This document shows, piece after piece, positions 4,673 to 62,502 of a stretch of 64,000 nt of DNA. Location of the stretch: positions 248,001 to 312,000 of the forward strand of contig OZ024763.1 of NCBI GenBank assembly GCA_964016885.1, written 5' to 3'. The notes under the pieces were generated by a model. That model searched no databases. It saw nothing but the letters and a program-made list of their open reading frames with translations, and was not told the origin of the DNA. A program made the translations under genes and the position numbers. The DNA is from Eledone cirrhosa (Eukaryota). Within the stretch, counting starts at the first letter, position 1, and every line of letters starts with the position of its first letter.

Positions 4673-5580
4673 TAAATAAATAAAAATAAAAATAAATAAT
4701 AATAATAATAATAATTTATTTATTTTTATTTATTTATTTTTTTATTATTTTTTTTTATTTTTTTTTTCATTTATTTATTTATTTTATTTTAATAATACTA
4801 ATAATGATTTCTTTATTTATTCATTATTTATTTATTTATTTATTTATTATATAATAATAATAATAATGATAATATGGACGCGCTGTTAAATTTCCATTAC
4901 ATTTATTGAGGTGTGACGTGTGTTTCACACTTGATCAGCTCAAGGTAACATCTGTATCGATTGCCCCCCCCCCCTCCCTCCCCACCCCGACTCTGGAATC
5001 AAAAGCTCATCAGACTTCTATTAGCGCAGTGACACCAAACATTTGTCTCAGAACTGATCTTTAACTAAGCAGGTGTACCAACATCAAACATTTGTCCCAG
5101 AACCACAGTGTTATCATGACTATAAAAAAAAATGACCTGATCTCTGACCTTGAAGAGATAAGATAATTCCTTTGTCAATGACAGGGCGCCATGTTTATAA
5201 ATTTACTGCCTGACATTCATAGTTTAAACCCATTTATTTACATATATATATATCTGAAATGTCTGCTCAAATTGAGGTGCGTTTTATTAGCCCATGCGGC
5301 TTCCAAAGTCCAAAATCTAGGGCCTCCAACTCTTGTTCGAGGAACCCCACCTTGGTTGATCTCCCTTCAATCCTTCCCAGAAATATGGGGTTGAAGAAAA
5401 AGATGAAGATTCATGATAGGTATCCTTAGAGCTTAGAATGTCTACTGAATTCACTCATAAAGCTTTGTATTTTTTGTGGGGTGGGATGCAGTTACCTTTT
5501 AGTTTTAGGATATAATTACATAAAAATAATTGTGCAGTATCTCATTAAAAAAAGTAACAACACACTTTTAATCCTTTATC

Positions 5581-6372
5581 ATTTACATTACTCTATATAT
5601 ACTATTGTATTTTCACAGTAAAGTCTTTACCTCACATAATATCTCACATAACATTTACATTACTCTATATATACTGTTGTATTTTCACAGTAAAGGCTTT
5701 ACCTCACATAATATCTCACATAACATTTACATTACTCTATATATACTATAGTATTTTCACAGTAAAGGCTTTACCTCACATAATATCTCACATAACATTT
5801 ACATTACTCTATATATACTATTGTAGTTTCACAGTAAAGGCTTTACCTCACATAATATCTCACATAACATTTACATTACTCTATATTTACTATTGTATTG
5901 TCACAGTAAAGTCTTTACCTCACATAATATCTCACATAACATTTACATTACTCTATATATACTGTTGTATTTTCACAGTAAAGTCTTTACCTCACATAAT
6001 ATCTCACATAACATTTACATTACTCTATATATACTGTTGTATTTTCACAGTAAAGGCTTTACCTCACATAATATCTCACATAACCTTTACATTACTCTAT
6101 ATATACTATTGTAGTTTCACAGTAAAGGCTTTACCTCACATAATATCTCACATAACCTTTACATTACTCTATATATACTATTGTAGTTTCACAGTAAAGG
6201 CTTTACCTCACATAATATCTCACATAACCTTTACATTACTCTATATATACTATTGTAGTTTCACAGTAAAGGCTTTACCTCACATAATATCTCACATAAC
6301 ATTTACATTACTCTATATATACTATTGTATTGTCACAGTAAAGGCTTTACCTCACATAATATCTCACATAAT
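5581..6372. repeat. 72-bp minisatellite, about 11 copies (inside MITE)
   Basis: 'atttacattactctatatatac...atctcacataac' recurs in phase at 5581, 5941 and 6301. Confidence 0.95.
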
Positions 6373-6438
6373 ATCAAATCTATGAGATTTTGATATTATT
6401 TATTTTGAGAACAATACCTTAATGTCAGTATGAGTAGC

Positions 6439-8335
6439 CAGTTACAGCCGGTTTAAGCTGAAGTAGTTGAGAGAGTTCTTGCCAGATATAACCAGTTACA
6501 GCTGGTTTCATCAGAAAGGGGTGAAATAATTCTGACCAGCTACAGCCAGTTACAGCCGGTTTGAACAGAAAGAGGTGACAGAATTCTGGACGTATACAGC
6601 CAGTTACAGCCGGTTTGAACAGAAACATGTGACAGAATTCTGGACGTATACAGCCAGTTACAGCCGGTTTGAACAGAAACATGTGACAGAATTCTGGACG
6701 TATACAGCCAGTTACAGCCGGTTTGAATAGAAACGTGTGACAGAATTCTGGACGTATACAGCCAGTTACAGCCAGTTTGAACAGAAACATGTGACAGAAT
6801 TCTGGACGTATACAGCCAGTTACAGCCGGTTTGAATAGAAAGAGGTGACAGAATTCTGGACGTATACAGCCAGTTACAGCCGGTTTGAACAGAAAGAGGT
6901 GACAGAATTCTGGACGTATACAACCAGTTACAGCCGGTTTGAACAGAAACATGTGACAGAATTCTGGACGTATACAGCCAGTTACAGCCGGTTTGAACAG
7001 AAACATGTGACAGAATTCTGGACGTATACAGCCAGTTACAGCCGGTTTGAACAGAAACATGTGACAGAATTCTGGACGTATACAGCCAGTTACAGCCGGT
7101 TTGAACAGAAACATGTGACAGAATTCTGGATGTATACAGCCAGTTACAGCCGGTTTGAACAGAAAGTGGTGACAGAATTCTGGACGTATACAACCAGTTA
7201 CAGCCGGTTTGAACAGAAAGTGGTGACAGAATTCTGGACGTATACAGCCAGTTACAGCCGGTTTGAACAGAAAGTGGTGACAGAATTCTGGACGTATACA
7301 ACCAGTTACAGCCGGTTTGAACAGAAAGTGGTGACAGAATTCTGGACGTATACAGCCAGTTACAGCCGGTTTGAACAGAAAGTGATGACAGAATTCTGGA
7401 CGTATACAACCAGTTACAGCCGGTTTGAACAGAAAGTGGTGACAGAATTCTGGACGTATACAGCCAGTTACAGCCAGTTTGAACAGAAATATGTGACAGA
7501 ATTCTGGACGTATACAGCCAGTTACAGCCGGTTTGAACAGAAAGAGGTGACAGAATTCTGGACGTATACAGCCAGTTACAGCCGGTTTGAACAGAAACAT
7601 GTGACAGAATTCTGGACGTATACAGCCAGTTACAGCCGGTTTGAACAGAAAGTGGTGACAGAATTCTGGACGTATACAGCCAGTTACAGCCGGTTTGAAC
7701 AGAAAGTGGTGACAGAATTCTGGACGTATACAGCCAGTTACAGCCAGTTTGAACAGAAAGTGGTGACAGAATTCTGGACGTATACAACCAGTTACAGCCG
7801 GTTTGAACAGAAAGTCGTGACAGAATTCTGGACGTATACAGCCAGTTACAGCCGGTTTGAACAGAAAGTGGTGACAGAATTCTGGACGTATACAACCAGT
7901 TACAGCCGGTTTGAACAGAAACATGTGACAGAATTCTGGACGTATACAGCCACTTACAGCCAGTTTGAACAGAAACATGTGACAGAATTCTGGACGTATA
8001 CAGCCAGTTACAGCCGGTTTGAACAGAAAGTGGTGACAGAATTCTGGACGTATACAGCCAGTTACAGCCGGTTTGAACAGAAACATGTGACAGAATTCTG
8101 GACGTATACAGCCAGTTACAGCCGGTTTGAACAGAAACATGTGACAAAATTCTGGACGTATACAGCCAGTTACAGCCAGTTTGAACAGAAACATGTGACA
8201 GAATTCTGGACGTATACTGCCAGTTACAGCCGGTTTGAAAAGAAAGGGGTGAGAGAAATCTGGTCGGATAGAGCCAGTTACAGCCAGTTTGAAAAGAAAG
8301 GGGTGAGAGAATTCTGGTCGGAAAGAGCCAGTTTA
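6439..8335. repeat. 54-bp minisatellite, about 35 copies (inside MITE)
   Basis: 'cagttacagccggtttgaacagaaa.....gacagaattctggacgtatacagc' in phase at 6601, 7141, 7681 and 8221. Edge units are more diverged. Confidence 0.95.
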
Positions 8336-59628: not shown

Positions 59629-60910
59629 ATATATATATATATATGTATATATATATATATATATATATATATATATATATATATATATATATATATATAT
59701 ATATATATATATTTGTGTGTGTGTGTATTATAATTATCATCATCATTTAATGTACATTTACTCTGCTACCAAGGATTTATGTGTATGAGTGTGTGTGTGT
59801 GTGTGAATACACACACACACACACACACACACATATATATATATATATATATATACACACACACTCATTTAGCTCCTCAAGTTACAGTATAATATCCATT
59901 AATATAAATTACATATATAACCAGCAAATTAAATTATGTGCGTGTGTATCTATCTCTCTCTCTCTCTCTCTATATATATATATATATATATATATATATA
60001 TATATATATATATATAGAGAGAGAGAGAGAGAGAGAGAGAGAGAGAGAGAGAGAGAAATATCATCACGATCATTGTTTAATGTCTATTTTCCTGGTAGCA
60101 AGTGTTGGACATATACATACATACATATATATATATATATATAAAAATATGCACATATATATATATATATATATATATATATATATATATGTGTGTGTGT
60201 ACGTGTACATATATATATAAATATATATATATATATATATACATACATATATTTATATATATATATATATACATATATATATATATATATATATATATAT
60301 ATATATATATATATGTATATATAAATATATATATATATATATATATATGTATATATAAATATATATATATATATATATATATACATACATATATATACAT
60401 ATACATACATATATATATACATACATATATATACATATACATACATATATATATATATATACATATATATATATATATATATATATATATATATATATAC
60501 ATACATATATATATATATATATATACATACATATATATATATATATATATACATACATATATATATATATATATACATACATATATATATATATATATAT
60601 ATATATATATATATGTATGTATATATATATATATATATACATACATATATATATATATACATACATACATATATATATATATATATATACATACATATAT
60701 ATATATATATATATACATACATATATATATATATATATATATATATATATATGTATGTATATATATATATACACACATATACATACACACACACAGATAA
60801 CTCTATTATTATCTTAATCATAAGCCATCTCCACCCTGTAACCATCAACACTAATGTAATTCCAAAGCTATAAAACCTCATGGAATCATCATCTACGTTT
60901 CCTTACATCC

Positions 60911-60971
60911 CGCATGCAAACATCCCCACATGCAAACATCCCCACATGCAAACATCCCCACATGCAAACAT
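60911..60971. repeat. 16-bp tandem repeat, about 3.6 copies
   Basis: 'catgcaaacatcccca'. Confidence 0.9.
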
Positions 60972-62272
60972 GTAGCAATAATTCTCTGCTAATATTTTCA
61001 TGTGTTCATGTTGATGTTCCGCGCATTTCGTCTTCAATTGATTCATGTAATTCCAAAAAGGTAATTACTGTTACTTCCAGCTGTTCCTCCTCACTCCCTC
61101 TTAAACAATATATCTTTGTTTACGTATGTGTGTGTGTATGTGTGTGTGTGTGTGTGTGTGTGTGTGTGTCTGTGTGTGTGTGTTCATATTTATATGTTTT
61201 TATATTTATATGTATGTATATTTATTTATATTTATATATTTATATATTTATATATTTATATATATATATGTATATATATATATATATATATGTATATATA
61301 TATATATATATATATATATGTGTATGTATATATATATATATATAAAAATATATTTATATATATATAAATATATTTATATATATATATAAATATATTTATA
61401 TATATATATATATAAATATATAAATATAAATTTAATTATAAATATAAACATATATTATTTATATATATATAAATATATATATATATAAATATATTTATAT
61501 ATATATATATATAAATATATTTATATATATATATAAATATAAATATAAATATATATATATATATATATATATAAATATAAATTTAATTATAAATATAAAC
61601 ATATATTATTTATATATATATAAATATATATATATATATAAATATATATATATATAAATAAATATATGTATGTGTGTATATACACACACAGACACACCAC
61701 ACACACACACACACACACACATATATATGTGTGTGTGTACATACACACACATACACACAGATATATATATATACATATATATATATAAAATAAAATATGT
61801 AACCTAACCTTGCATTAATCATGTGAAATGGTATACAAGAAACCAAACTAGATATTCTTATAATTCTTTTATTCTACGATTTCATTATTCTTATCTGTTA
61901 TAGAAACTATTATTGTATTATTCTCATCTGTTATTCAAACTATTATTCTATTAATCTGGTAAACTATACTGAGCACGCATAATAATGCAGAAATGATATT
62001 GTCTGTTGATACAACAGTAAGCAGTTTTTTAAAGTTTTCTTTTGTATCTTACATGATAAAGCGGGGGTTAGTTTAGCGGGACCCATAACAGGCTTCATAC
62101 ACAACCATCATAGGGTCTTTTTGAAATGTTTTACAGCTGGGTCCTCTTTTTGACACAGACCTTATTTGTCACCCTTTCGTATTACATGCAGGGGTTTGAT
62201 TTAGGGTCACAACGTATCAATTATAATCTTAATACACACAAACATGTATGTAAATAGAAGTTATGAAATAAT

Positions 62273-62502
62273 TTAACCCTTTAGCATTTAAACCAGTCAT
62301 AATCCGGCCACAATTGTCTCACCTCTTTCTGTTCAAACTGGCCATAACTGGCTGCTCATACTGATGTTAAGGTATTGCTCGCAAAATAAATAATGTCAAA
62401 ATCTCATAGATTCGATATTATGTGAGATAATTATGTGAGATAAAGCCTTTACCATGAAAATATAATAGTAAATATAGAGTAATGTGAATGCTAAAGGGTT
62501 AA
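62273..62502 (+). mobile_element. piggyBac-type MITE, unexpanded (222 bp plus TTAA on both sides)
   Basis: TTAA-CCCTTTAGCATT ... AATGCTAAAGGG-TTAA, perfect 12-bp terminal inverted repeats. Confidence 0.9.

Follow-up and report, generated by a model that had tools for sequence, protein, structure and literature searches.

Long interspersed elements (LINEs) of the L1/Tx1 type are known to target DNA transposons: in Xenopus, Tx1 (Tx1L) inserts into Tx1D, a non-autonomous piggyBac, and crocodilian Tx1-Mar is a further case (PMC4494074, PMC6719617). Satellites derived from MITEs (miniature inverted-repeat transposable elements) are also known, among them Xstir/Xmix and miDNA4 of Xenopus and Tetris TIR-220, with stem-loop excision, microhomology and unequal exchange quoted as the mechanisms of their formation (PMC12628747, PMC9659126). 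The RNA of the site-specific retrotransposon R2 typically keeps ca. 28 nt of upstream target sequence, which anneals at the 5' junction, and Drosophila R2 has been proposed to restore rDNA copy number via breaks and recombination (PMC13580325). A paper on octopus repeats lists piggyBac and L1-Tx1 families and, in its available portion, makes no mention of a link between LINEs and arrays (PMC13282606). Here, we analyze a 64,000-nucleotide stretch of the genome of Eledone cirrhosa (assembly GCA_964016885.1, contig OZ024763.1, positions 248,001 to 312,000; hereafter, the window), which begins 248 kb into a contig denoted C24 of a 3.0-Gb assembly and contains three copies of a piggyBac-type MITE, two of them with tandem arrays inside. 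The usual account of transposon-born satellites is local slippage or unequal exchange; here, one and the same element appears to have followed this local route at one end and to have received a unit that spreads between loci at the other, where a site-specific LINE is probably involved.

The three copies had been described in an original prediction made from the letters of the window alone, and the positions, periods and copy numbers given there were confirmed by Tandem Repeats Finder (TRF) and by the TTAA flanks. The features that matter here, in window coordinates, are the following:

62277..62498, + strand: unexpanded MITE copy of 222 bp with 12-bp terminal inverted repeats (TIRs) and TTAA at 62273-62276 and 62499-62502.
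52728..54181, + strand: MITE copy with a left array, TTAA at both flanks and a right segment ca. 43 bp below the family-majority length.
52741..54080, + strand: 44-bp x 30.5 array (TRF), an expansion in register between two inherited direct repeats.
5572..8347, - strand: MITE copy that bears an array at each end; its TTAA flanks are at 5568-5571 and 8348-8351, and its right TIR is decayed.
6436..8333, - strand: 54-bp x 35.1 array (TRF), an out-of-register expansion (44 bp plus a 10-nt sub-repeat) with a private unit.
6372..6435, - strand: unexpanded MITE core between both arrays, with 4 substitutions in 64 positions relative to the family majority.
5580..6371, - strand: 72-bp x 11.0 array (TRF) of the genome-wide standard unit.
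10145..11990, - strand: outside the MITE, three 3' fragments of older LINEs related (71-82%) to the MITE-targeting one; they end in (TAGG)n and (GATA)n tracts.

The 72-mer at the right end of the MITE is a unit shared across the genome. The window 72-mer was matched at 98-99% at 40 loci, and the exact 72-mer junction occurred 23,346 times (the reversed pattern, 0 times). Frequency per copy was determined in a sample of 60 regions, taken so as to avoid selection, around listed left ends on contig C1 (0.1-32.7 Mb) and in a second sample of 20 arbitrary 10-kb regions of C23-C25. Out of 68 exact left ends sampled, 12 led to a right array and one to a LINE in the first unit, while none led to a left array; the 72-mer arrays are the commoner kind per copy (13/68 array-or-LINE versus 0/68). 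In the arbitrary regions, arrays made up 4 of 12 pieces. Two false-positive right arrays (L182 +5172 and L194) were taken out of the 68-copy count and are still among the 41 array rows used below. The expectation that arrays genome-wide would mostly be bounded by the MITE held for both kinds: the 72-mer arrays fetched retained a MITE end in at least 18 of 20 cases, and 17 of 19 fetched 44-mer arrays began at the left TIR.

The copies that host 72-mer arrays are as old as those that do not. In 41 array rows that were not chosen by unit similarity, host cores were 5.2% diverged, versus 5.4% in monomers, while unit bodies in the same rows were 1.7% (array majority) or 2.5% (mean unit) diverged, versus 5.6% in monomers. 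A single haplotype, with both CpGs decayed alike, was found in 18 of 41 arrays and in 3 of 89 monomers (p=2.7e-8). An 88-nt stretch that spans the junction, the unit and the end was identical at 85 loci. When the first 30 of these loci were fetched, the core was present in 21 and was 6.7% diverged; the median pairwise distance among these 21 hosts was 17%, versus 14% for monomers, more than one host subfamily was represented, and the first unit was mostly still host-type. The terminal 8 nt were equally old in both groups (10.2% diverged in 44 arrays, 9.9% in 62 monomers). Loci L345 and L346 each consist of an old host with one perfect standard unit and without a LINE, and in the arrays of L190 and L114 standard units are sandwiched between host-type units. 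Because the hosts and their last 8 nt are old, and the first units are mostly host-type, standard units appear to have been inserted between the host's own first unit and its terminus. We conclude that the import of standard units into pre-existing old hosts is very probable on the present comparison of sequences.

Other sources of a shared unit were considered and rejected. An assembly artefact is ruled out, since units differ among themselves, the arrays lie on many contigs, and the same structures are seen in other organisms: contigs of three other organisms, from two studies, show the 72-back joint and span the unit-LINE junction. (In an orthologue look-up, no contig of other organisms spanned the element of the dimer L345.) Segmental duplication is ruled out by differing flanks, with the tandem duplicate L096/L097 as the exception, and a break at the TIR that replaces the terminus is ruled out by host-old termini. 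As a separate observation, at L184 (C1:5.852-5.862 Mb) a unit of ca. 1 kb, composed of a MITE right-end piece and unrelated DNA, is tandemly repeated and adjoins an 82-bp variant array.

Gaps of 5.6-6 kb in the arrays correspond to a 5.55-kb LINE, inserted antisense to the MITE. Its 1,149-aa ORF2 frame contains an APE endonuclease (PF03372), a reverse transcriptase (PF00078) and a C-terminal zinc domain (PF13966). Compared with solved structures, the protein was closest to L1 ORF2p (5e-52; R2, 5e-23); the name TX1 was carried by one of 40 homologues, at 24% identity, and four clusters that were looked up were nameless. The element can be described as Tx1-like, apparently a young LINE of the L1/Tx1 type. 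Its ends were located with LINE-only patterns, blind to the flank, which matched exactly at 329 3' ends and 262 5' ends. The first 30 3' ends all lay at one position, 18 bp inside the MITE right end or its equivalent in a unit (30/30). The first 30 5' ends all ran into a unit junction (29 of the 72-type and one of a 60-type), and none of these continued directly into the MITE terminus. Four 5'-truncated copies rejoined the target without such a head, two of them with a 6-9-nt duplication; one of the four sits in the last unit, and is followed by the terminus. Among 22 paired ends, those variants that the pre-LINE unit has at positions up to ca. 33 were not repeated after the LINE, and some later ones were. 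Because the post-LINE unit lacks the target's variants over its first ca. 33 nt, full-length copies seem to bring a standard head of their own. The LINE thus appears to carry an R2-like target head at the 5' end of full-length copies, absent in truncated ones. That the extra unit comes from a long target-site duplication was ruled out for L251/L281 and L261/L290, where the post-LINE unit is without host variants, and is partly true at L278/L305.

The window's own 72-mer array contains the LINE target site in every unit, the first at about 5589/5590; no LINE was present inside this array (5580..6371). Older relatives of the LINE end in (GATA)n, including the fragments at 10145-11990, and these microsatellite-ending fragments likely point to an earlier target of the LINE family. 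Elsewhere, stacks of at least six full-length LINEs, head to tail, were observed at C1:4.22-4.26 Mb (L253-L258, L283-L288) and C10:40.7-41.4 Mb; in the C1 stack, 1-20 units separate the LINEs, apparently within one MITE. At L290 and L292, which are 40 kb apart, the first unit to follow the LINE 5' end contains an insertion at two bases' distance from the LINE site, of an element that does not match the LINE. In several MITE copies (L081 7070, L089, L191 and others) a common SINE-like element follows directly after TAAT/GTAAT, and in two MITE copies it is at the LINE site; it is possibly a non-autonomous partner.

Array hosts are enriched for an intact LINE target site. An intact 10-nt LINE site was found in the first units of 31 of 43 arrays and in 18 of 65 monomers (p=1e-5). 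First-unit divergence at positions 54-62 was 0.5% in arrays, versus 5.8% in monomers; at positions 13-34, it was 4.3% in arrays, versus 8.7% in monomers, and further in the first units are partly host-like. The predicted nick site is bracketed by the host-to-standard switch on one side and the old terminus on the other. We propose that the LINE endonuclease nicks old copies at a predicted site 18 bp inside the MITE right end. The freed 3' end would match any standard unit and, copying a standard template, would grow past the unit junction before rejoining the host ahead of the host's own terminus; either an ectopic array or units within the upstream read-through RNA of the LINE would serve as this template. 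A single event of this kind could add one unit or several. If the growing end switched back early to the unit of the host itself, a host-type array with a standard junction would result, and copy number would later be altered by ordinary unequal exchange; every added unit would be a fresh LINE target. Since a single-unit head alone cannot make an intact junction, we infer that the template must hold two adjacent units. Direct addition of standard units, initiated by the LINE at the nick site, is the explanation that we favor, and we consider it probable, with moderate confidence. About half of that probability falls to an RNA template. That the LINE reverse transcriptase behaves in a telomerase-like manner, nicking an old MITE, priming on 72-base units of its own RNA head and adding units without the LINE body, is put forward here as a tentative idea.

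Several observations weigh against initiation by the LINE. It is now present in only 4 of 13 sampled array-or-LINE copies (L166, L186, L190, L205). With a median of 0.8% from their majority, in a set selected by an exact pattern, LINE copies are younger than the units, which stand at about 2%. The 85 perfect arrays are absent from C1-C3, which hold 50 of 329 LINE ends; since perfect arrays avoid these LINE-bearing contigs, a recombination-dependent step is indicated. Several arrays are wholly host-type with a standard junction (L183, L219, L204, L187). A rare core variant with a 7-nt microhomology, found in 2 of 68 copies, could yield the same junction without a LINE, and conversion tracts close to the end might likewise account for an intact first-unit site. 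The first two observations, seen as 9 of 13 arrays without a LINE and as units that appear older than LINE copies, suit a LINE-independent contagion, in which the 72-mer junction has one origin or a few, ectopic gene conversion or circle re-integration carries it from one MITE end to another, and the LINE settled in the arrays later as a safe haven. Perfect arrays are moreover more strongly concentrated on the small contigs C19-C27 than the LINE is, and donors are plentiful, with 23,346 junctions among tens of thousands of homologous MITE ends. Yet such contagion leaves unexplained why first units are intact specifically at the site (0.5% versus 5.8% at positions 54-62) while positions 13-34 stay at 4.3%, and why the LINE 5' head begins at the unit junction; we regard it as unlikely, though deserving of serious attention. 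It is also conceivable, if rather improbable, that a full-length LINE brings several upstream units and is afterwards deleted by recombination between flanking units, the array staying behind as solo long terminal repeats (LTRs) do. Where the LINE sits in the first unit, the host continues beyond it with at least three (L251/L281) or at least seven (L276/L330) standard-like units, first units grade from host-like to standard, and tandem LINEs one unit apart show unit exchange (L256/L287). However, 9 of 21 hosts keep host variants in the first unit up to positions 47-55 of 62 before the nick, leaving little homology for such an exchange. This account is itself a form of the LINE-driven reading and does not oppose it.

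The original prediction had the arrays of both ends form independently from the host's own sequence. This fits the left 44- and 54-mers, whose units in the window are private, and fails for the right 72-mers, which share a standard unit among unrelated hosts and carry a LINE target. Host-type right arrays such as L183 and L204 would fit it, as the window 44- and 54-mers do, but these right arrays are a minority, and derivation of the right 72-mer from the host copy's own sequence was not what was found in general: a perfect standard body, present in 0 of 89 monomers, ends 85 arrays, hosts without the 12-bp duplication carry 72-mers that require it, and sandwich arrays exist. For both ends together the model is very improbable, and for standard-type 72-mer arrays it is contradicted. 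Transposition of an array-bearing master copy as a subfamily is equally hard to credit. Arrays do lie between intact TIRs and TTAA, and the genome contains an intact transposase family whose ends match; against this, array hosts equal monomers in age and in distance from one another and belong to more than one subfamily, their cores are twice as diverged as the units, and the one close pair, L354/L357 (1.4% over positions 1-140), has differing first units. No sign was found of array-bearing MITE copies continuing to transpose. We retain LINE-initiated addition as the preferred account of the right arrays.

The left arrays are of the ordinary, well-documented kind. A direct repeat of ca. 20 nt, at positions 11 and 55 of the MITE, consists of two halves of ca. 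10 nt each; a slip in register between the two direct repeats gives 44 bp and a slip out of register 54 bp, and periods of 45 and 51 were found as well. The units bore out the prediction that the 44-mer, with one 10-nt sub-repeat added, makes the 54-mer. Two private substitutions in the window 44-mer are fixed in the first, last and majority unit, and the closest other arrays were 91% identical to the window 44-mer and 84% to the window 54-mer. The exact 44-junction pattern occurred 2,792 times, the first 100 occurrences listed being all within one array (L091+L092), which is at least 19 kb long. Arrays of satellite size are present at C2:414.96-415.27 Mb (L130-L132) and C1:11.99-12.01 Mb (L091-L092); the one at L132 starts at an intact left TIR. 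At C17:41.27-41.29 Mb, L096 and L097 form a tandem duplicate with identical flanks and 24 versus 14 copies of the 44-mer. Since the two share flanks but differ in copies, array length shifts after duplication. An array-specific spacer variant was seen in 18 of 39 left-array rows (a sample biased by similarity). The other 21 of 39 rows, in a set of which most were chosen by similarity, have the family-majority spacer, versus 17 of 93 monomers; this excess counts against purely local origin and may reflect exchange between loci for left arrays too. We suggest that left arrays grew on the spot as the two inherited direct repeats slipped or exchanged unequally with each other, and local growth from the host copy's own repeats is likely for the 44/54-bp arrays.

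The MITE family is large. An exact 24-nt left-end pattern matched 13,885 times genome-wide (reversed control, 0), which rules out chance matches here as it does for the 72-mer junction, and since 13 of 34 sampled left ends match exactly, the copy number is roughly 30-40 thousand by extrapolation. The remaining 39 top genome matches of the 222-bp copy were 90-93% identical to it. TTAA was present at both sides in 23 of 30 fetched copies and at one side at least in 30 of 30; no empty insertion site was seen for the copies checked. The family majority is 221 bp long, the copy at 62277 having a private 1-bp insertion in the first repeat. The three TTAA-flanked window elements aligned with the 222-bp copy, as predicted, at 77-89% over the aligned pieces reported. 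The predicted CCC/GGG inverted repeats hold for the family majority, in which the ends begin with CCC and finish with GGG and the 12-bp TIR is perfect; among the window copies it is perfect only at 62277, while the 52728 copy has one change in each TIR and the 5572 copy two changes in the right end. Each of the three window elements is an old insertion of its own; they belong to one family and do not represent stages of a single element.

A piggyBac origin, proposed from the ends, is supported by an autonomous relative. A Pfam search of the genome revealed intact piggyBacs, among them a family of 2,567 bp with a 558-aa ORF (PF13843, E=5e-83; PF13842, E=1e-7) that comprises a DDE_Tnp_1_7 transposase and a C-terminal zinc finger (loci L062-L070 and others). 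Its copies are 94-100% alike and were flanked by TTAA on both sides in 5 of 5 checked. When the MITE was aligned with the first ca. 190 bp of this element, 132 of 185 positions were identical (score 133.5, versus a maximum of 71.5 in 200 shuffles), and the terminal 18 nt of the right end of the 62277 copy are those of the autonomous element. The two share TTAA flanks, CCC...GGG ends and the 44-bp repeat spacing; the built-in subterminal repeats claimed for the MITE recur in the autonomous element, likewise at 11 and 55, and the repeat that seeded the 44-mer is therefore taken to be inherited from an autonomous ancestor. Unlike the autonomous copies, MITE copies are 5-6% diverged, and they would derive from an older relative (71% identity). 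By its sequence, the MITE is an old non-coding, non-autonomous piggyBac family. Two autonomous copies (L065 on C1 and L066 on C2) are 100% identical over 2,577 bp with differing flanks, which is what a very recent transposition leaves behind. At 15680-16570 of the window, right-end fragments of a second piggyBac family form several degenerate direct copies; they match the right end of L071/L074/L076, whose TIR differs.

Other arrays of the window (66, 33, 26 and 16 bp, and a 21-kb block) had no TTAA-CCC boundary in the flanks examined. At 18016-19585, a 66-bp x 16 array at 97% is followed by a degenerate 182-bp higher-order block, and a TIR was not seen. A 30/33-bp array at 34542-35271 has several open frames on each strand, of up to 261 aa, and is possibly a repetitive exon, or just stop-free. 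A 7.7-kb array at 38932-46641 has a 16-bp CA-rich unit with extreme strand skew.

If the link between the LINE and the arrays is true, it would be an extra route to the birth of minisatellites, by which a retrotransposon builds thousands of dispersed arrays that are its own future landing sites; a mobile element would thus enlarge its own target pool, the nearest parallel being R2 and rDNA. The system lends itself to testing, since its site, its head and an intact ORF2 frame have been defined, each dimer records a single event, and dated controls are at hand in tens of thousands of unexpanded copies. A further lesson is that near-identical dispersed arrays need not imply recent transposition of their hosts. 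We found no published report of a LINE spreading a MITE-internal repeat between loci, though subscription papers, primary Tx1 papers, Repbase or supplements could hold one.

MITE-born satellites and the targeting of a piggyBac by Tx1 are thus known already; what is new here is imported units tied to a site-specific LINE, by the mechanism that we propose. The likeness to Xenopus Tx1L and Tx1D is that an L1/Tx1-type LINE targets a non-autonomous DNA transposon, and relatives of Tx1 target microsatellites, as the older LINE relatives appear to do here. The difference is that creation or spread of the targeted repeat by the LINE is not stated for Tx1 in the available portions of the sources (PMC4494074, PMC6719617), whereas here the unit is standardized across old hosts. 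With the described MITE satellites, the system shares arrays that come from an internal or subterminal MITE segment, lie within its ends and can attain satellite length (at least 19 kb here). The mechanisms quoted for those satellites cover the left arrays but not the imported right unit, and the name Tx1 is absent from both reviews (PMC12628747, PMC9659126). R2 resembles the LINE described here in being a site-specific retrotransposon with a head of upstream target sequence, for which a role in driving tandem-repeat gain is proposed. The R2 endonuclease is restriction-like. R2 acts on one existing host locus; the LINE described here is of the APE type, and the new arrays linked to it lie in many dispersed transposon copies.

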